64,000 nt of DNA from Centroscyllium fabricii (taxonomy: Eukaryota), in contig JBNRSN020000007.1 in the NCBI GenBank assembly GCA_051313645.2, positions 275,094,001 to 275,158,000 on the forward strand, in the 5' to 3' direction. The stretch's first letter is position 1; the number at the start of each line of letters is the position of its first letter. A model generated the notes under the pieces. It made no database searches and had not been told where the DNA came from. It saw nothing but the letters and a program-made list of their open reading frames with translations. Shown here piece by piece: positions 4,404-59,238 of this stretch. The translations under genes were made by a program, and so were the position numbers.

Positions 4404-5398
4404 CAGGTTGAAGTTCATAATCCGGCACCCGAAAAACCGGCAGCTTCAGTTATTCGGCTCAGATTTTCCCGACTGCCCGGCGCATGCGCAGACAATTCAA
4501 AATGGCCACCGTTGGGGCTGGGCTTCCCTTTCATCTAACATATACTCACTGGATCCTGGCTTAGTGACCACCCCGATGCCGATGGTGAACCCCAGGCCCA
4601 GAAAATGAGCTGTTGCAGCCTTTCGCAGGACGCGGTACAGCCAAAACTTGGCGCCCGGCTCCCCATCGCTGCCGGAAGCTGCTGCATGCTGACGGCACTG
4701 CGTTCTGAAGCTGGCATGCGGTGGCATCACGTGAGCCAGGCTTGACCCGCGCATTGGGCCTCAGGCCCACTGGAGCCGTGCAGCCCGCTCCCTGATCCGC
4801 AGCAGAATCAATGGCTGCGTGCTGACGTTACCGCGTTCCGAAACTGGCGTGCGGTGGCGTCACGTGAGCCGGGGTTGAGCCGCGCATTGGGCCTCAGGCC
4901 TGCTGGAGCCGTGCAGCCCGCTCCCTGATCCGCAGCAGAATCAATGGCTGCGTGCTGACGTTACCGCGTTCCGAAACTGGCGTGCGATGGCGTCACGTGA
5001 GCCGGGTTTGAGCCGCGCATTGGGCCTCAGGCCCACTGGAGCCGTGCAGCCCGCTCCCTGATCCGCAGCAGAATCAATGGCTGCGTGCTGACGTCACCGC
5101 GTTCCGAAACTGGCGTGCGGTGGCATCACGTGAGCCGGGCTTGAGCCACGCATTGGGCCTCAGGCCCTCTGGAACCGTGCAGCCCGCTCCCTGATCCAAC
5201 ATGGGCAGCAGAATCGAGTGCGTCCTGTGAGTTCCACCCGACCCTAGGGCTGAAAATTACCTTCTAGGTACCGGCGACGCATGCGCAGAGCATTAAAAAG
5301 TTTGCGGTGGCCATTTTGAATGTTCTGCACATGCGCCGCCGAAGCTTCAATCATTCGGCATGGTGCTGGTCCCGACCCTGCCAGATTAACTCAACCTG
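4404..5398. mobile_element. Tigger/pogo-like MITE (inner)
   Basis: TA|CAGGTTGAAGTT ... AACTCAACCTG|TA. Confidence 0.75.
4678..5197. repeat. 133-bp GC-rich tandem repeat, ~4 copies
   Basis: CGCAGCAGAATC recurs at 4798, 4931 and 5064 (period 133). Confidence 0.95.
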
Positions 5399-16759: not shown

Positions 16760-16965
16760 ACAACAGAAAATGCTGGAGAAACTCAGCAGGCCAGGCAGCA
16801 TTGGTGGAGAGAGAAACAGAGTTGACGTTTCAGGTTGAAGAGAGGTCATCGACCTGAAACGTTAACTCTGTTTCTCTCTCCACCGATGCTGCCCGGCCTG
16901 CTGAGTTTCTCCAGCGTTTTCTGTTGTTATTTTGGATTTCCAGCATCCGCAGTATTTTGCTATCG
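16760..16965. mobile_element. Palindromic mini-PLE, family B
   Basis: AACAGAAAATGCTGG...CCAGCGTTTTCTGTT inverted arms around GACCTGAAACGTT; asymmetric tail; imperfect TSD TATAACA(A/G)AGAT. Confidence 0.7.
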
Positions 16966-25575: not shown

Positions 25576-25806
25576 TTGCAAGAAGTCACACAACAACAGA
25601 TTATAGTCCAACAGTTTTATTTTAAATCACAAGCTTTTGGAGCGTTCGCCCCTTCGTCAGGTGGAAAGAGAGACTCTTTCCACCTGACGAAGGGGCGAAC
25701 GCTCCGAAAGCTTGTGATTTAAAATAAAACTGTTGGACTATAATCTGGTGTTGTGTGACTTCTTGCAATTGTCCACCCCAGTCCAACACCGGCACCTCCA
25801 CATCAT
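25576..25806. mobile_element. Palindromic mini-PLE, family A
   Basis: ~95-bp inverted arms of the PLE 3' end plus ~37-nt tail; TSD ATTATATTTCTT. Confidence 0.85.
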
Positions 25807-32099: not shown

Positions 32100-32196
32100 T
32101 CAAATGCAAGAAGTCACACAACACCAGATTATAGTCCAACAGTTTTATTTTAAATCACAAGCTTTCGGAGCTTCTACCCCTTCGTCAGGTGAAAGA
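32100..32196 (-). mobile_element. PLE family A 3'-end fragment (single arm)
   Basis: Matches the pLTR sequence at 57460-57550. Confidence 0.8.
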
Positions 32197-32513
32197 GAGA
32201 GACTGACTTAAAGAACGCACATGTGTGATGAAGAGAGAAATCTGATATCTCCCACATCTCACCTCAGTAGAGATAGACACACAAAGGCTTATTAACATAT
32301 TTTAAGTGTTTCATTTTTTGGTGTAACCTGATAAATATTACTCCCAAATGTTAATCGTATTGGAGGGGATGGTTTTTATAAGGTAACCTGTTGCCCTTTG
32401 GCTCAATACTTTCATTACTTATGTATTGGTATTAAGCAACATTTGCGCCTTATTGATTATTTAGCAGTCTCCCTTCTTTTTGACACATTTGAAAACAGAT
32501 TTCAGTTACCTAC

Positions 32514-39935: not shown

Positions 39936-40442
39936 TGAGGTCTTACTCTCAGAAGATGTTTGTATGTTGAGTTAATCTGAGTGGGTAAGACTGTAGAAAG
40001 GGTCTTTGGGTGTCCAGGTTTCTGTATAGAAACTCACATGCTCCTGACAGGTGCATGGCCTTCACTCCAATTGTAAGGGCTTTTGTATCATGCCTCACCC
40101 TCTATCTGGGTTCTCACTTTTTTATTGGTTTCTGTATGAGGCCACATTCTTGGACTCACACATTACATATAGGTATCCCATGCGTTCACATTATTTATGT
40201 AAGGTATCTCTATGTAGATTCACTCTCTGTTCTCTGAATGAGGTCACTCTATATCAGTGTCTTTATGTGGTCTCATTCCCTATATAGTCTGTATGGTGTC
40301 TCTCTCGATTGGGGTCTGTATTGGGTCCCAAGTTTTGTTGCTGGTGTCAGTAGGGATCCTATTCTCAGCACTGGTCTCTGTAGGTGGTCCCTCTCTTTGT
40401 ATTGGTTTCTCTATGCGCGAGAGTCTTTGCGATTCAGATTTG

Positions 40443-40683
40443 GCTACAGATCAATTCGCACCCGCATGACTAGATTTAAGAACAGCTTCTTCTCCAGGGC
40501 TGTCAGCCTCCTGAACTCGAACAAAAAACTCCAGTATTTGCACACCTGATATGTACTTTACTGTATGCAATTGTATGTAACTTATTTGCACTACTCTCGG
40601 GAGCAGTGAGTCTTTGTTTCATTATATTGTACTAGTACACTGCAATGACAATAAATTTGAATTTGAATTTTGAATTTTGAATT
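40443..40683 (+). mobile_element. Rex1/Babar 3' end (further tail copy at 48217-48361)
   Basis: YRSIRTRMTRFKNSFFSRAVSLLN plus 3' UTR and tail. Confidence 0.8.
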
Positions 40684-40799
40684 CTATCAGAAAGAGGGAG
40701 AGCCATCCATCTAGGAACTGGAAAAATCTCCTGATTGCTCATATGGCCAGTCTTCCCCTATCTACATGGGCTTTCTAACTGTATCCTTATCTCTACTGG

Positions 40800-40950
40800 G
40801 CCTCTCTGTATCGGTGTCTGTATGGGGGTCTCACTCTCTGTATTGGTGTCTGTATGGGGGTCTCACTCTCTGTATCGGTGTCTGTATGGGGGTCTCACTC
40901 TCTGTATTGGTGTCTGTATGGGGGTCTCACTCTCTGTCCTATTGTCTGTA
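40800..40950. repeat. 32-34-bp minisatellite core (TCTCTGTATYGGTGTCTGTATGGGGGTCTCAC)
   Basis: About 4 near-perfect copies; decayed copies at ~39950-41900, 47270-48570 and ~49200-49330. Confidence 0.85.
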
Positions 40951-41417
40951 TGGAGTCTCAACCTCTACTGGTGACGTTATAGGGTCTATCTCTATATTGG
41001 AGTCTGTATAGGGTCCCACCCTCTGTCACTAGTGTCTGACTGGAGTCTGACTGTCCACTAGTCTCTGTATGGGGTCTCTTTCTCTCTCTGTTTTGGTGTC
41101 TGTATGGAGTCTTTCTATTCTTGTTTCTTTATGGGGATTCACTCCCATTGTTGGTGTCTGTACTGGCTTTCTCTTGTTATTGATGCCTATGGGCTCAATC
41201 TCTCTGTCAGGAGTCTCTCTATATAGACTACAACATGCAGCCTGACTACCTGTATCTATGTATGAGATCTCACTATTGTCTGCATTGGAGTCTATTTCAC
41301 GTTATTAGTGTCTATTGGGGTTTTACACTACTGGTGTCTGTATGGAGGACTCAATCTTTGGATAGGTGTCTACATGTGGTATTTCTGAATTGCTGGATAG
41401 GGTTTCTCTATAGTGGT

Positions 41418-41622
41418 CGATACCAAAATACTGCAGATGCTGGAAATCCAAAACAACAACAGAAAATGCTGGAAAAACTCAGCAGTTCAGGCAGCATCAG
41501 TGGAGAGAAACACAGAGTCAACGTTTTGGGGAGTTCCCTTTATCGACTACCCGAAACGTCGACTCTGTGTTTCTCTCCACCGATGCTGCCTGAACTGCTG
41601 AGTTTTTCCAGCATTTTCTGTT
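41418..41622. mobile_element. Palindromic mini-PLE, family B
   Basis: Inverted arms; TSD TTTCTCTATAGTGGT. Confidence 0.75.
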
Positions 41623-42152
41623 TTTCTCTATAGTGGTGTCTGTTTAGGGTCACCCATTATTAGTATATGTATGCAGTTTCTGAAATGGGTTCTGTACAGG
41701 GTCTTCCTTTGTATTGGTGTCTTTACGGTGACTTAAGTTTCTGCAGCAATCTCTATAAGGGCTTTCCACTTCATATTGCTGCCTGAATAGGGTTTAGCTC
41801 TCTCTTTTTGTGTCTTATTAGTGTCTTTCTTTCTATATTAGTGTCTGTATGAGGCTTCTTTCTGTATTGGTGCTTGTATAGGGTCTTACTTAATACTGTA
41901 GTTGGACTTTCCTCTGATTATTGCTCATTTTGGGGTGCATTTGTGGCAATAAATGGAATAAAATAGGGCTGTGATGCTTCATGCCTACTCCCTGAAGAAT
42001 ACTGCTTCAATATTGCACCAAATTATCCTCTTAAAACAATCGCCAGTCCTCTTTAAGAACTGTCAGGGGTCCATCCTGCTGCATTTAAATGGGTCTCTGA
42101 CCCATTTTCTTCAACTTCCACCCCAAACTATTACTACCATTATTAAGTGGTA

Positions 42153-46950: not shown

Positions 46951-48754
46951 CTATCCCTTCTAGCCCAACTTCAGTTAGCAACACATCCATGGGTGTCTCC
47001 GAAAATCTTGGAGTCATGTCTGCTGCTGACTCCAGTCCCCTCCCTCCTCCAAGGATGCTGCTTCTTAAGACAGCTGGCTCTCTCTAATGCTGGGAAACTG
47101 ATGACACCTTTAACTGGCTCTAAACCATATTAGGAGCCGTATTACCACTCCAAACTTGCTCTGCATAGCAAATGAGGGCCCTAGGAGGAAGGTATAGTGG
47201 GCTAGCGATGGGGGCAGTAGTCTTGCTCAGCTGCCAAACTACCAATGGGAGGAGAATCCAGTCGCCAATGTCTGTAAGGAGTCTTGCTCTATGTATTCAT
47301 TCTGTATGGAGTCTTACTTGATGTACTAGAGTCTGTATGGGGTCTTACTATCTGTTTTGGTGTTTGTATAGGGCATCTCTCTCTCTCTCTCTATTTGTGT
47401 TTGTATGACATCTCACTCTCTATCCTTGTGTCATGATGGGGTCTCCATCTCTGCAATGGTGACTGGGTTTTTCTACATTGGTGTCCGTATGGGGTGTTAT
47501 TTTCTCTACTGCTGTCACTATGGAGTCTCCTTCCTTGTACTGATGTCTGAATCTCACTGTCTGTACTCGTGTCTTTCTATGTATTGCTGTTTCTATGAGT
47601 TATCTCTTTATATAATGGTGTCAACATGGTGTATCTCTGTAGTGTCGGTATGGAGTCTCACTATCTATTGGTATTTGTATGAGGTTTCTACTCATCTGCA
47701 GACTTGGGGCCAGCTTCTCTGTTTGAATTGGTGACTGTGTGATATCTCTTTCTGTACTGATGTCTGTAGGTGGTCTATTTCTCTCTTTTGGTGTTTGTAT
47801 GGAGACTGTCTCAATGCTGGTGTCTGTTAGAAGTCTCTCTTTCTGTTTCAGTGTATGTTTGTGTTATTTCTCTGTATTGATACCTTTGTGGGTTGACACT
47901 GGCTTGGTATCTGAATATAACAAATCAAATTTATATAAAGCCTTTAATGTAGGAAAATGTCCCAAGGTGCTTCACAGGAGCGTAATCAGACAAAATATGA
48001 CAACAAGCCACAGGAGGAGACATTAGGACGAGTGACTAAAAGCTTGGTCATTGAGGTAGGTTTTAAGTAGGGAGTAGGACTTCATTCTTTCTACTGGTGT
48101 CAGTATGTTGCACTCCCTATGTTGGTGTGTGCATGGCATGTTACTCTCTGTACTTCTGTATGTATGGAGCCTCATTTTATTGGTATTTCTATGGAGCGTT
48201 ACTGTCTGTATTGGATCACCTGAAATGTACTTTACTGTATGCAATTGTATGTAACTTATTTGCACTACTTTCGGGAGCGGCGAGTCTTCGTTTCATTGTA
48301 TTGTACTAGTACTCTGCAATGACAATAAAATTTGAATTGAATTGAATTGAATTGAATTGAATATTTGGAATCTATTTGTATTGGAGTCTATATGGGGTCT
48401 TTCTCTCTCTCTGTATTGTTATCTATGGGTCACTCTTTCTGTGTTGGTATCTGTATGGAGTTTCTCAGAGACCTTACTGTCTGTATGGGGTCTCTCACTC
48501 TCTCTGTGCTACTGTCTGTAAGGCTCTGACTCACTGTGCTGGTGTCTTTGTGAAGGTTCCCTTCTCTGTATTAAGAGCAAGCCTTTGGCTTCGTCATCAT
48601 ATTCCCACCTTCGAGCTAGAAAGTGCAGGGTTCAAACCCTACCCAGACAGTCTTGGTAAGTGGAGACTGGAGTTTCCAACTCTGAATTTGGCATTGGTAA
48701 CCAGTGGGATACTGATTGTATGGGTTGTGGAAGTCCATAACAACCTCCTGCCAT

Positions 48755-49035
48755 AGAGAGACTTGCATTTATATAGCGCCTTTCATGACCTCCGGACGCC
48801 CTGAAGCGCTTTACAGCCAATTAAGTACTTTTTGAAGTGTTGTCACTGCAGTAATGTAGGAAATATGACAGCCAATTTACACACAGCAAGATCCCACAAA
48901 CAGCAATGGGATAGTGACCAGATAATCTGTTTTTAGTGATGTTGATTGAGGGATAAATATTGGCCAGGACACTGGGGATAACTCCCCTGCTCTTCTTCAA
49001 ACTAGTGCCTTGGGATCTTTTACGTCCACCTGAGA
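48755..49035 (-). mobile_element. DeuSINE/SacSINE1-like fragment (short related copy at 50380-50490)
   Basis: Matches 2878-3090. Confidence 0.75.
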
Positions 49036-49851
49036 GAGAATTAGCTACTAAGATGGTTGCAGCCATGGAAGGAGCATTCATATTCTGGTCTGTCAGACTG
49101 TTAATCATTCTACAAATCCTTCCACTATGTCAGACAGTTCTCCGAGGAAAGAGAGTGAAGATACAACAACAACTCGCTGTATTGCTGTTTCCCTGGATTC
49201 TCCCTCTCTGTATTGCTGACTATTTATACTCAGCCTCTGTGCTGGTATCTGAATGATGTTTCATTCTCTGTGCTGTATCTATATGATATCTCCCTCTCTG
49301 TCTCGCCGCTCTATGGGATGTCTGTATCTTCACACTGTATAGATCGGATAACTTCCCCGCATCTTTGCCGTGATATATACTGATCAAATAAACAGGCCAG
49401 CTTTTATCAAATGGACCGAAACCAAGCACGTCGGAGAAAGCAAATACACTTCAAAAGTGAAAGGCTTCTTTGGTGGCCTCTATCCGTTTGATTTTAAGCT
49501 GTAAACAGACACATTTTAAGCAATCCCTATTCCTAGGACAGTGAAAAATGTCTGTTGTAACTCTCTGTCGGTGTTGGGATCTAAAGGAGTCAACTATCTT
49601 TGAAAAGAAAGAGATTTTATATTTCAAAAAAAACCTATATGTCTATCTGTCTATTCCTTCCGCTGTTCTGAGTGGGCGGCGAAGAGCCGAGGTTATCTCT
49701 CCTTCAGGGAGCAACTCTGCTGGTCTTCACAGACCGTGCTGGGAAAGACTTCACCAGCCCCACATTCACTGGCCCGACAGATACCTCCCAATTTCCAGAA
49801 CATCCCCATTTGAAGTTTGAAGATGTGCTTTGTCCTCCTCTTGTGATTATA

Positions 49852-50094
49852 ATGTGGAGGTGCCGGTGTTGGACTGGGGTGGACAATTGCAAGAAGTCAC
49901 ACAACACCAGGTTATAGTCCAACAGTTTTATTTTAAATCACAAGCTTTCGGAGCGTCTGCCCCTTCGTCAGGTGATAAAGAACCTTAAGTTCTTTCTTTC
50001 TCTTCTTTCACCTGAGGAAGAAGCAGACGCTCCGAAAGCTTGTGATTTAAAATAAAACCGTTGGACTATAATCTGGTGTTGTGTGACTTCTTGC
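49852..50094. mobile_element. Palindromic mini-PLE, family A
   Basis: Inverted arms plus tail; TSD CTCTTGTGAT. Confidence 0.85.
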
Positions 50095-50506
50095 TCTTGT
50101 GATGGTCTCTGTAAATCATGCACTTCCGCTTCCCAGGCAGCCGGTTCGCATATACCTTTGGTTTACCGTTGGGTCCTGACCAAGAACAAAATACAAATCT
50201 TTGGTTGTGTTTTAATTTTAGGATAAAGACGTGACTTAATGATGTTAGCGAATTCAAACTGTTCGCCCTACTGATTTATGCACCACCATCACACCGCTTC
50301 CAGAAACCCGCTGGGCGTTGGAATAGAGCGCCAGTTCTAGAAATAGCCAAGTTACCCCGAAAGGACTCGGCGATATAATAGAAAGACTTGCATTTATATA
50401 GCGCCTTTCACGACCACCGGACGTCTCAAAGCGCTTTACAGCCAATTAAGTAATTTTGGAGTGTAGTCATTGTTGTAATGTGGGAAACAGGATTAAAAAA
50501 AATATA

Positions 50507-50673
50507 TGTAAGATGTCACACAACACCAGGTTATAGTCCAACAGTTTTATTTGAAATCACAAGCTTTCGGAGCGCAACGCTCCGAAAGCTTGTGATTTCA
50601 AATAAAACTGTTGGACTATAACCTGGTGTTGTGTGACTTCTTACATTTGTCCACCCCAGCATCTCCACATCAT
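50507..50673. mobile_element. Palindromic mini-PLE, family A (short)
   Basis: Inverted arms centred near 50576; A-rich TSD AAAAAAAATATA. Confidence 0.8.
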
Positions 50674-51111
50674 AAAAAAAATATAAGCGCTGTGGTGACA
50701 CTTGTGTGTGTTGTGTAGTATCCGTATTTAAATTGCGCGATCGTTTTTATTTGGAAGTGGAAGTTTGTTTGTAGCTAGGCGTCCTTTCGTTTAAACGGGC
50801 ACATTTAGCGATAGTTTTATTACTGGTAAAAGTGTAAAACAGAAGGCATGGAATTGCCATTTAATTATGGTTCAGATTACAGGGAAACGCTGCACAATCG
50901 GCGCCCAAGCGACAGCTTTACAATTTAGCGTTGGACAACAAAACAGCCCGAGCTGGAATATCTGAGCCATTTGGATCAAACGTTCCCTGAGATCCTTTCC
51001 AAGGGCGCTTCCCAGGTGAGGGTGAGTGAGAGAGAGGGTACACACACACACTGGAAGAGTGTTTGGAAGCAGAATAAAAAACACCCGGCGATAAATGTGC
51101 CTCTTCCAAAA

Positions 51112-51277
51112 TGCAAGAAGTCACACAACACCAGGTTATAGTCCAACAGTTTTATTTGAAATCACAAGCTTTCAGAGCGAAAGCTTGTGATTTCAAATAA
51201 AACTGTTGGACTATAACCTGGTGTTGTGTGACTTCTTGTATTTGTCCACCCCAGTCCAACACCGGCACCTCCACATC
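51112..51277. mobile_element. Palindromic mini-PLE, family A (short)
   Basis: Inverted arms plus tail; TSD TCTTCCAAAATG. Confidence 0.85.
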
Positions 51278-52185
51278 GTGTCTTCCAAAATGATCCGATG
51301 ATCCCATTTTATAATGTACTTGTGACTGACAATTTCGGATGAAGTTTTATGTACATATATAGTCATATATTAATATATGTCTGGAGACGTTTCACTACAT
51401 TAAAGGCGCTAGATAAATGCAAATTGTTGTACACACATGTGCACAAATACACACACACACACACACATTATCTACATATATACTCCTGGAAATACACCTT
51501 TCATTTCCTGGCTTTAGTCTTGACAAAGGGTCCCGACCCGAAATGTCGACTCTGTATCTCTCTCGGATGTTGCCTGGCCTGCTGAGTTTTTCCAGCGTTT
51601 TCTGTTATATAAGATATGCAACTTGTTTTGCGACAATATAAGTAACCCGGCAGCAGTTTTCTGGGATTGTCCCTTTTTATTGTGCGGTTGTAGTTTTCGG
51701 GTAAAGCAGGTTATATTCGTTACATCACTCAGACACCCCCTTGTTGGTGGGCCGTTTGCAAAGAATCTGCACCCGTGTCATTCGAACTATCTGCAAATAT
51801 CTGAACATTTCGGGAAAACCCGATCGGCGTCTGATGAAGCGAATGAGTGGACTTTCGCCATTCGCCTCATTCTTGTGCGCGGTATTTCTGTCAGGAGTTG
51901 GGAAACGCGGAGTGTGGGCAGCGCGCAGCTGATTTACGAGCAGTATTTGGAGGTGAAGTGCTCATTATTGAACGAGGACACGAAGAAACAGGAGCATTTG
52001 ATCAGAAAACAAACGGTAATCAGTCGGCCCAGCAATCTCGAGGCCTCAGAAAATAAACTAGCTTCAATAAGTAAGGCAACCAGGCTGCCTGCCCCGAGAC
52101 AGCACGGAGGGTGTGAGTTGGGAGGTGATGTTGGGACGGTGCATGAACACTATTGGCGGAACAGTCGTGTCTAATCTAATTTATG

Positions 52186-52406
52186 ATGTGGAGGTGCCGG
52201 TGTTGGACTGGGGTGGACAAATGCAAGAAGTCACACAACACCAGGTTATAGTCCAACGGTTTTATTTTAAATCACAAGCTTTCGGAGCTTTGTGTGTTCT
52301 TTAAGCCAGATTCTCATTCACCTGACGAAGGGGCAAAAGCTCCGAAAGCTTGTGATTTAAAATAAAACCGTTGGACTATAATCTGGTGTTGTGTGACTTC
52401 TTGCAT
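52186..52406. mobile_element. Palindromic mini-PLE, family A
   Basis: Inverted arms plus tail; TSD TAATCTAATTTATG. Confidence 0.85.
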
Positions 52407-55598: not shown

Positions 55599-55917
55599 AA
55601 TCATAGAATCATAGAATCCCTACAGTGCAGATAGAGGCCATATCGGCCCATCGAGCCTGCACCGACACATATCCCACCCTATCCCCGTAACCCCCACATA
55701 TTTAATGCCCCTAACACTAAGGGTCAATTTATCCTGGCCAATCAACCTAACCCGCACATCTTTGGACTGTGGGAGGAAACCGGAGCACCCGGAGGAAATC
55801 CACGCAGACACGGGGAGAATGTGCAAACTCCACACAGATAGTCACCCGAGGCCGGATTTGAACCCGGGTCTCTAGCGCTGTGAGGCAACAGTGCTAACCA
55901 CTATGCCACCGTGCCGC
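55599..55917 (-). mobile_element. V-SINE, full length, short tail
   Basis: Matches 6233-6541. Confidence 0.9.
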
Positions 55918-55929
55918 CCCTCCGGCTAG

Positions 55930-56118
55930 AACAACAGCAAATGATGGAAAAACTCAGCAGGCCAGGTAACATCCGTGGAGAGAAATAGAGAGTCGACGTT
56001 TCGGGTTCAAACCCTTTGTCAAGACTTTCTCTCCACGGATGTTGCCGGGCCTGCTGAGTTTTTCCAACATTTTCTGTTGTTATTTCGGATTTCCAGCATC
56101 TGCAGTATTTTGCTATCG
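55930..56118. mobile_element. Palindromic mini-PLE, family B
   Basis: Same arms and tail as 16760 and 41418; a single-arm copy also lies at ~51518-51607. Confidence 0.7.
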
Positions 56119-56162
56119 TACACGTTTTTAATCCGGCTATGTTCTGTTGGCATGATGTTAGA

Positions 56163-57550
56163 ATGCGGAGGTGCCGGTGTTGGACTGGGGTGGACAAATG
56201 CAAAAAGTCACACAACACCAGGTTTAAAGTCCAACGTTTTATTTTAAATCACAAGCTTTCGGAGCGTCTGCCCCTTCGTCAGGCAAAGAGAAACTGAAGT
56301 CAAAGATCACACACATGGGGGAGGGGAGAAATTTGATCCCATACATCCAACCCTAGAGCACACAGGATCTGCTCAGATGAGGAGGAACGCGACAGACACC
56401 TACAGACACTGAAAGACGCCCTCGTAAGAACGGGGTATGACACTCGACTCATCGATCGACAGTTCCGACGGGCCACAACGAAAAATCGCGTAGATCTCCT
56501 CAGAAGACAAACACGGGACACAACCAACAGAGTACCCTTTGTCGTCCAGTACTTCCCCGGAGCGGAGAAACTACGCCATGTTCTTCGCAGCCTTCAGCAT
56601 GTCATTGATGATGACGAACACCTCGCTAAGGCCATCCCCGCGCCTCCACTACTCGCCTTCAAACAGCCACCTAACCTCAAACAGACTATAGTTCGCAGCA
56701 AATTACCCAGCCTTCAGGAGAACAGCAACCACGACACCACACAACCCTGCCACAGCAACCTCTGCAAAACGTGCCGAATCATCAGCACAGATACAATCAT
56801 CACACGTGAGGACACAACACACCAGGTACATGGCACATACTCATGTAACTCGACCAATGTTGTCTACCTCATACGTTGCAGGAAAGGATGCTCCGGCGCA
56901 TGGTACATCGGCGAGACCATGCAGACACTACGACAACGGATGAACGGGCACCGCGCAACAATCGCCAGGCAGGAATGTTCCCTCCCAGTCGGGGAACATT
57001 TCAGCGGTCAAGGACATTCAGCTTCCGATCTTCGGGTGAGCATTCTCCAGGGTGGCCTTCAAGATACACGACAACGCAAAATCATCGAGCAGAGGCTGAT
57101 TGCCAAGTTCCGCACCCATGAGCACGGCCTCAACCGTGATATTGGGTTTATGTCACGCTACATGTGACCCCGCCTGGCGTGGAGTCGTCCAGACCTGAAC
57201 CATCTTCGGCTTTTTTATAAAAAAAGTAATTCTGTGGGATTTACAGCAGACTAGCGTTAGGCCCTGTGACTGCACCCTTTTGATGTGTCTTTTTTGCTTT
57301 AAAAAAGGGAAAAGAAATCACACTGTGTTTTGCAATTGTGCCCCATTGTTCGCAGACTGAGGTGTTAAGGTATGCTAATATGCTTGTGTGCTCTAGGGTT
57401 GGATGTATGGGATCAAATTTCTCCCCTCCCCCATGTGTGTGATCTTTGACTTCAGTTTCTCTTTGCCTGACGAAGGGGCAGACGCTCCGAAAGCTTGTGA
57501 TTTAAAATAAAACGTTGGACTTTAAACCTGGTGTTGTGTGACTTTTTGCA
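56163..57550 (+). mobile_element. Penelope-like element (Neptune-type), 5'-truncated, with inverted pLTR copy
   Basis: Encodes RT C-terminus plus GIY-YIG; 56200-56363 is the reverse complement of 57386-57550; TSD GCATGATGTTAGAA. Confidence 0.93.
56364..57167 (+). CDS. PLE ORF fragment: RT thumb, Cys-rich linker, GIY-YIG endonuclease
   Basis: Uninterrupted frame RICSDEEERDRHL...PCHSNLCKTC...CNSTNVVYLIRC...WYIGET...RMNGH...VGEHF...GLN; no start codon (truncated). Confidence 0.9.
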   Translation, partial: RICSDEEERDRHLQTLKDALVRTGYDTRLIDRQFRRATTKNRVDLLRRQTRDTTNRVPFVVQYFPGAEKLRHVLRSLQHVIDDDEHLAKAIPAPPLLAFKQPPNLKQTIVRSKLPSLQENSNHDTTQPCHSNLCKTCRIISTDTIITREDTTHQVHGTYSCNSTNVVYLIRCRKGCSGAWYIGETMQTLRQRMNGHRATIARQECSLPVGEHFSGQGHSASDLRVSILQGGLQDTRQRKIIEQRLIAKFRTHEHGLNRDIGFMSRYM

Positions 57551-57663
57551 TGATGTTAGAAGACTGACTGCGAAAATAAAACATACTGTTGAAACCCAAA
57601 CTGTCCAAGATCATGTGAAGGGATCAGCAGGGTTTCATTTATCCCAGTCCAACTGGAAATTAG

Positions 57664-58025: not shown

Positions 58026-58801
58026 ATCGTTGATCTGACTCTGTTTTTTGCACATTAACTTTAATGTCCCAGCACTCCACTACAATGCTAAACCTGCTGT
58101 GTAAACCCACCAGCAATTCTTTCACAATCCCTTTAGCTAAATAGAACAAAAGGTTCTATGTCACATCAATTAATTTAGAGAAGTCTTTATCTTATTGTTC
58201 TGTTGCCAAACAGTATTATATTAGCTGGTTCAAAAATAAAAGAGATTTCTAAAAACTCCGAGTTGTAAGGAGAAATCTACAATGTCTGATTCTGATTAGA
58301 GACTGATTTTGAGCTTCTTTATGCGAGGCTGTTGGCTGCTAATAGAATGCCACACATTAATAAAATATTAGCAACACCCCAACATTCAAGATACTATCGT
58401 TATCCACATGATTCACTTAGATACTAATTTGACTTCAAGCAGAGCATTTGGGCCACTTTAGATTTAATTTCCCACACAGTTAAAATTGTTTTCAATGCGA
58501 TTGTAAACTGATAGACTACCACATTCGCATCGATATACAATCGTTTTGGTTGGGCATCAGTACTAAAGTGGTACTATAAATTGGGTGTCCAATTAATCCC
58601 AAAGGATTAGGTAATAATTTGGCTGCAGAAAAAATATGACCTAAATTGGTTTATGTTCATTGGAGTGTTGCAAAGGCAAGTGGTGCTGAACCCATGACAA
58701 GAGGCTATCTTGCAGCAGTTGGAGTTTGCATCAGTTGCATTATGACTCTAGTGTGCTAACAAGCCGCAATTTAAAAGTGCCAGGGACTCCCTGCAAACTT
58801 G

Positions 58802-59238
58802 TGGCATGGTGGCATAGTGGTTAGCACTGTTGCCTCACAGCTCTGGAGACCCGGGTTCAAATCCAGCCTCGGGTACTATCTGTGTGGAGTTTGCACATTC
58901 TTCCCATGTCTGCATGGGTTTCCTCCGGGTGCTCCGGTTTCCTCCCACAGTCCAAAGATGTGCGGGTTAGGTTGATTGGCCAGGATAAATTGACCCTTAG
59001 TGTTAGGGGGATTGAATGTGTGGGGTTACGGGGATAGGGGATAGGGTGGGATATGTGTCAGTGCAGGTTCGATAGGGATTGAGGGATATGGGGACAAGGC
59101 AGGGATAGGGTACTGGGTTTGGATGATCAGCCATGATCTCATTGAATGGCGGAGCAGGCTCGTAGGGCCGAATGGCCTACTCCTGCTCCTAGTTTCTATG
59201 TTTCTATGTTTCTATGTTTCCTGCTCCTATCTTCTATG
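58802..59238 (+). mobile_element. V-SINE, full length, long tail
   Basis: TGGCATAGTGG A-box, GGTTCAAATCC B-box, V-domain, CR1 tail. Confidence 0.9.

Follow-up and report, generated by a model that had tools for sequence, protein, structure and literature searches.

The 64-kb window, by which we mean the whole stretch of DNA that was analysed, contains an insertion in which a sense arm (56360-57551) and an inverted arm (56163-56364) are joined head-to-head. The sense arm encodes the end of an RT region, a CX4CxxC linker and a GIY-YIG endonuclease, with a stop codon at 57167, and a candidate hammerhead ribozyme (57463-57500) lies ~300 nt 3′ of the stop codon of this ORF remnant. The parts of the insertion are as follows.

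56150-56163, + strand: left target-site duplication; its 14 nt count in bases that also belong to the element ends
56163-56364, − strand: inverted, 5′-truncated partner arm; 167 nt match the sense end exactly, and a tail of ~35 nt occupies about 56163-56197
56249-56286, − strand: hammerhead in the inverted arm, identical to 57463-57500
56360-57551, + strand: sense arm of a 5′-truncated Neptune-type Penelope-like element (PLE), with ORF residues ~621-890, 3′ UTR and a pseudo-LTR (pLTR) without tail
57463-57500, + strand: minimal type-I hammerhead, UUGC variant, assigned from its letters and the published consensus
57463-57466, + strand: 5′ strand of helix I
57467-57473, + strand: CUGACGA core
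57474, + strand: extra A
57475-57488, + strand: stem II
57489-57492, + strand: GAAA core
57493-57494, + strand: GC centre of the palindrome
57495-57496, + strand: U16.1 and U17
57496/57497, + strand: predicted cut
57497-57500, + strand: 3′ strand of helix I
57548-57561, + strand: right target-site duplication

At 57506-57545, an AATAAA 9 nt past the predicted cut, with a GU-rich stretch after it, resembles a polyadenylation signal in the pLTR. Elsewhere, the window holds degenerate ~31-nt pyrimidine-rich tandem arrays (40200-41900 and 47300-49200), a 133-nt tandem repeat of ~4 copies (4681-5197) and many copies of the repeats D1, D2, D4 and D16 (for example, 55606-55919 and 58801-59216), which we take to be SINE-like and LINE-3′-end-like families.

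The letters that a first-pass annotation of this DNA had given for the motif, TTGC-CTGACGA-A-GGGGC(AGAC)GCTCC-GAAA-GC-TT-GTGA, were confirmed at 57463-57500 on the + strand. The six further copies that it had listed are all present (C3 at 25684(+), 32188(−), 49971(−), 50012(+), 52322(+) and 56282(−)), and three need correction. The pairing of TCAC or TTGC with GTGA claimed for them fails in the 25680 copy, which reads CCAC and therefore has a 3-bp helix I; stem II of the 50012 copy is broken; and a U.G pair closes stem II in the 32188 copy. A partner arm with G12 changed to A at 25660(−) had been overlooked, as had units near 50575, 51178 and 52288 that break off within the ribozyme. The copies outside the 57463 insertion belong to these units.

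25577-25803: head-to-head mini insertion with a 12-nt duplication; hammerhead at 25680-25717 (+) intact, partner at 25627-25664 (−) with G12→A
32104-32246, − strand: single truncated arm with a hammerhead at 32155-32192
49847-50094: head-to-head mini insertion with a 10-nt duplication; hammerhead at 49938-49975 (−) intact, that at 50008-50045 (+) with stem II broken
50506-50671: head-to-head mini insertion lacking a whole ribozyme, as both arms break off within stem II
51109-51276: head-to-head mini insertion truncated at the GAAA box, with a 12-nt duplication
52186-52406: head-to-head mini insertion with a 14-nt duplication; hammerhead at 52318-52355 (+) intact, other arm truncated in stem II

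Each window unit thus listed carries at most one intact sense ribozyme, a same-strand partner inside the copy's own insertion is absent, and a transcript through a short inverted unit is predicted to fold as one long hairpin. A loose pattern matched the window 10 times (4.4 expected by chance). A structure-aware descriptor (both cores, stem II of at least 4 bp, palindromic helix III and helix I of at least 3 bp) gave 6 matches in the window, and in shuffles gave none in 299 of 300 and one match in the other; the seventh copy (50012) was missed because its stem II is broken. An exact 16-nt-gap pattern, whose spacing was wrong for the motif, gave 0 matches in the window. Among 30 Rfam matches in the window up to E = 10 there was no hammerhead family, the motif falling short of the gathering threshold of the Rfam hammerhead families. 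The miRNA-like Rfam matches were rejected as palindromic PLE units, and a weak CPEB3-ribozyme match at 49051-49123 (24.4 bits vs a gathering score of 35) is probably due to chance. Judged by its letters, the motif is real and matches the known stripped-down hammerhead ribozyme of PLE ends.

We next turn to the host element, here termed family A. Across the 7.2-Gb genome, the motif pattern has 59,708 exact matches, compared to 0 for the pattern reversed as a control. A 30-nt stretch from the 3′ flank of the repeat was matched 153,557 times. The ORF remnant in the window is 98.5% identical in amino acids to residues 621-890 of the intact 890-aa ORF of locus L185, and such intact ORFs occur at L022-type, L185 and L189 loci. 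The 890-aa protein contains an RT domain (Pfam RVT_1, E = 8e-10) and, as read from translations, a CX4CxxC linker and a CCHH GIY-YIG endonuclease C-terminal to the RT; the Pfam GIY-YIG model was unmatched in the ORFs of the element, where RT was matched, and Pfam gave no significant match on the truncated ORF of the window. By domain layout the host is a Neptune-type PLE, this layout being given for Nematis too, and the motif is located in the pLTR of an RT plus GIY-YIG element. A body fragment showed 97-100% identity in 46 matches, among the matches listed, and family A is therefore young.

Tandem copies also exist: L036 is a partial one, and L185 consists of two complete units arranged head-to-tail. 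In tandems the predicted cut falls 91 nt upstream of the ATG, just before an AATAAA, and an optional tail ends at the ATG; such tail-ATG junctions number 938 in the genome. At L185 (G000:C1:462246500-462256000), each tandem unit has an intact 890-aa ORF, and the middle and last ribozymes carry point changes. Young family A copies also lie inside or at the end of older ones (L002 1245-2427, L031 and L157). The element is covered by contigs of four sequencing runs, contigs that carry no end or strand information. From its repeat types, the host may be a cartilaginous fish. Among the papers listed on shark and cartilaginous-fish Penelope elements, subscription journals and Repbase aside, we found no description of family A.

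To describe conservation of the fold, 96 distinct family A arms were sampled by their 3′ flank, rather than by the ribozyme itself. A whole ribozyme is present in 73, six of which were dropped because their junction lies inside helix I or at the start of the core, leaving 67. Helix I pairs 2.1-2.3 are kept in 66, 66 and 67 of these and the five stem II pairs in 63-66 (G10.1-C11.1 in 63), counts inflated by the relatedness of the copies, which do not represent independent events. The common changes turn A-U into G.U (at 10.3 in 21 of the 67 arms, at 2.2 in 5). N7, loop II and position 2.4 vary freely; as position 2.4 is unconstrained and the three inner pairs are kept, helix I comprises 3 bp, not 4. 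The core is the canonical CUGANGA in 56 arms, CUUGA in 4 and otherwise changed in 7. At the N7-G8 CpG, the tolerated outcome UG is found in 21,490 copies vs 3,073 for the core-breaking CA, the UG:CA ratio being ~13 for GGAGC stems and ~2 for GGGGC stems (a hand count, among the matches listed). Apart from the low ratio of the GGGGC stems, which weighs on the other side, these substitution patterns indicate that the hammerhead fold is under selection.

The motif agrees at every position with the published consensus for minimal hammerheads of metazoan PLEs (U-rich, NNN, CUGANGAH, G..C, GAAA, palindrome, UH, NNN, AU-rich). Its hallmarks, according to the available text of Cervera and de la Pena 2014 (PMC4209133), are a nucleotide between 9 and 10.1, the G10.1-C11.1 pair and a palindrome; U17 is common in the alignment given there, and a U3.G8 core is also present. 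The palindrome proposed to stand in place of helix III is one of these hallmarks and reads GC in 67 of 67 arms. The extra A is likewise present (A in 73 of 73 arms), but had been taken for a tolerated variant, whereas a nucleotide there is a feature of the consensus. With the consensus match, the host element and the pair-preserving variation in agreement, the original identification as a minimal type-I hammerhead in a PLE terminal repeat holds.

A second hammerhead-bearing PLE, family B, was absent from the first-pass annotation; it accounts for 1,844 exact motifs genome-wide and has left decayed copies in the window.

55992-56025, − strand: decayed family B hammerhead (U3, G8→A) inside a head-to-head unit at ~55927-56119

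Other decayed units of this older family, head-to-head or solo, lie in the window at 51517-51609, 16760-16945 and 41437-41622. The family B protein, found in 8 of 33 loci with the hammerhead downstream of the ORF, is 26-40% identical to that of family A, and the repeats share only 12 nt of sequence. The fold recurs in family B, where 2.2-1.2, 2.3-1.3, 10.3, 10.4 and helix III (CG for GC, a palindrome centre selected by the search pattern) have changed on both sides; since the core served to select the family B copies, the helices alone carry information. The covariation across genomic copies that had been proposed as a check is thus seen between families A and B, but within family A the changes are one-sided wobble changes and none is both-sided. 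Rare family-B-like hammerheads with a different stem II occur at L207, L218 and L205, the first pairing GUGUC with GACAC. When a non-G was required at 10.2, so as to reveal further families, 47 matches were obtained vs 85 in the control, and there is therefore no large third family by this pattern.

The sequence 3′ of the cut site is equally conserved, and conservation alone could therefore reflect protein binding. The fold might persist chiefly for its structure, as an RNA signal that binds protein, causes pausing or brakes expression, with catalysis vestigial in this lineage. The U3.G8 subfamily of family B (11 of 30) is consistent with such a role, as is the lack of a cleavage footprint described below. 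We nevertheless consider it unlikely, given constraints that are specific to catalysis: G8, G12-A14, U16.1 and the palindrome are fixed in families A and B despite their protein divergence (with the core-sampled family B counting only for its helices), and N7 varies while change of G8 is disfavoured.

The first-pass annotation had proposed self-cleavage after GCUU; no footprint of a cut at this predicted site is seen in the insertion ends sampled. The sampled arms cross the site and end ~55 or 90 nt beyond it, so that insertion templates were uncut or rejoined. The 5′ ends of the 96 arms do not pile up there, with 3 of 96 within 3 nt (0.43 per nt), compared to 36 in the 42 nt upstream (0.7-1.0 per nt) and 9 in the next 35 nt; the upstream excess is broad, unlike a sharp cap-like start at helix I, and no single-base peak was found among the 96 arms. 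Among 30 tail-ATG loci, the only starts near the cut site are those of L076/L077 (2 of 30, one duplicated locus), an ORF-bearing insertion beginning 2 nt from the site. HDV-like ribozymes define the 5′ end of R2 RNA, and an efficient hammerhead might set the 5′ end of the transposition RNA here, mini-copies then stemming from cut RNA. A cut 91 nt before the ATG and just before AATAAA would suit this role, as does the L076/L077 start; however, the latter is one independent event, arm 5′ ends are sparser at the site than upstream of it, and 3′ ends lie well past it, which together make this explanation very improbable. Both the uncut arms and the missing 5′-end peak count, in turn, in favour of the structural-signal explanation.

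Predicted folding and altered subfamilies bear on the same question. For the 57463 variant, of which there are 3,597 exact copies genome-wide, the model gives a probability of 0.23 for stem II and of 0.14 for helix I vs ~1.0 for the 52322 copy, and predicts that a rival hairpin is preferred. In cofolding, a 6-bp AAGCUU duplex (−17.7) is predicted to beat the catalytic 4-bp form (−15.1), and the minimum-energy dimer differs from the hammerhead. CUUGA replaces CUGA in 5,716 copies spread over three stem-II contexts, and ORF-bearing CUUGA copies are 98% identical to young family A. This subfamily of family A, with its extra base at the C3 end of the core, is seen for example at L085, L094, L188 and L191-L200. 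In the available text on the saltern variants (PMC3088659), insertions near C3 impaired cleavage. The recent amplification of both the core-insertion and the predicted-misfolding subfamilies favours the structural-signal explanation, as does the anole PLE, in which, according to the accessible portion of that report (PMC11167929), insertion was unaffected by catalytic mutants. It also raises the possibility, which we find doubtful, that ribozyme catalysis is now dispensable for spreading in this lineage, the CUUGA copies and those with the helix-I change and rival hairpin (57463 included) having amplified anyway. If true, the two altered subfamilies would make this genome a natural allelic series on whether PLE hammerheads need cutting. 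According to the accessible text of PMC4209133, minimal PLE hammerheads are inactive as monomers and of low activity as dimers (Cervera and de la Pena 2014). Weak, conditional cleavage in tandem transcripts appears the likeliest function, and the window copies are likely silent relics.

The first-pass annotation had described the short units as mini-copies of the terminal repeat. They do contain repeat sequence, but are now read as independent 5′-truncated, mostly head-to-head insertions. We compared 75 distinct inverted units, taken from the window and from loci L001-L200. Just one of the two arms has the tail in 67 of them, and the longest sequence common to both flanks measures 12-13 nt in 39 units and 12-15 nt in 46. 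No two units share a centre, and lengths grade continuously from ~60 to 4,250 nt; the hairpin mini-copies of the window therefore lie at the short extreme of a graded series of truncated insertions. A rival explanation would place the mini-copies in a non-autonomous hairpin family of their own, MITE or retrozyme-like, that carries its own ribozyme. In its favour, several units in the window form near-perfect palindromes (130-250 nt); against such a family stand the differing centres and continuous lengths, the one-tail asymmetry and ~12-nt duplication common to short and long units, and the fact that no short tandem arrays were found in the loci examined, and we give it hardly any credence. 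A non-LTR retrozyme was likewise rejected, the units being inverted or solo with variable centres and the tandems found being 3.1-kb coding units.

In the reading that we consider probable, the motif is a minimal type-I hammerhead in the pLTR of a young, very abundant Neptune-type PLE, predicted to cut slowly after GCUU and only through AGCU-paired copies or the protein of the element, while the window copies are truncated insertions, likely derived from uncut RNA and likely inactive in place. A tandem pLTR-ORF-pLTR would place two ribozymes ~3.1 kb apart on one RNA; once paired, these could form a 4-bp helix III across the two copies (A15.1-G-C-U16.1), with a cut 91 nt ahead of the ATG. The integration template would be RNA still spanning the 3′ cut site. 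A pair of nicks staggered by ~12 nt may each prime a cDNA, one copying from the tail end and the other from the pLTR end, and joining of both at their truncated 5′ ends would yield head-to-head units.

The motif itself is ordinary, being of a type routinely found at the ends of animal PLEs. This genome contributes scale, with at least 59,708 exact ribozyme motifs and 153,557 copies of the end repeat, together with material on the role of PLE hammerheads in the form of intact tandem elements and altered-core subfamilies. The count of the one-tail, 12-13-nt-duplication signature constrains the integration model, and the residual value of the variant subfamilies lies in testing whether catalysis matters.

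Several features recur in known systems. Compared to the minimal hammerheads in the available text of PMC4209133, family A shares GAAA-GC-UU with the turtle and Philodina rows and helix I UCAC/GUGA with the lamprey row, helix I being similarly short, and copies there are also mostly solo, truncated or on opposite strands. The 59,708 matches here compare with ~4,000 in coelacanth and ~9,000 in Xenopus, obtained by different search methods; the 5,716-copy subfamily whose core is one base longer at its C3 end is a further difference, and the alignment in that text is without cartilaginous fish. Non-LTR retrozymes, as presented in the available part of Li et al. 2026 (10.64898/2026.07.22.740005), also carry a type-I hammerhead of PLE origin, but are short non-coding tandem repeats, whereas the units here are inverted or solo truncations of a coding PLE. 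Neptune and Nematis EN+ PLEs, within the accessible text of Craig et al. 2021 (PMC8557442) and Arkhipova et al. 2013 (PMC3846280), share the CX2-5CxxC linker and CCHH endonuclease, and also partial tandems, an inverted 5′-truncated copy, a 30-40-nt tail at one end and short duplications. These duplications are 8-10 nt in the rotifer examples vs 12-13 nt here, and microsatellite targeting is not evident in the duplications listed here.

Poseidon of Anolis is another close system. In the available text of Frangieh et al. 2024 (PMC11167929), its ORF starts in stem II with the cut inside the ORF, unlike the ATG 91 nt downstream of the cut here, and it is without the Zn-finger linker that family A has. 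Ribozyme cleavage of the anole PLE depended on protein and was dispensable for insertion in vitro, and that study also demonstrated that reverse transcription starts at two sites and that both strands are nicked. As in family A, the hammerhead lies in the pLTR, there are two 3′ end points, with and without tail, and, in line with the model proposed here, the insertion template is uncut RNA and both strands are nicked.
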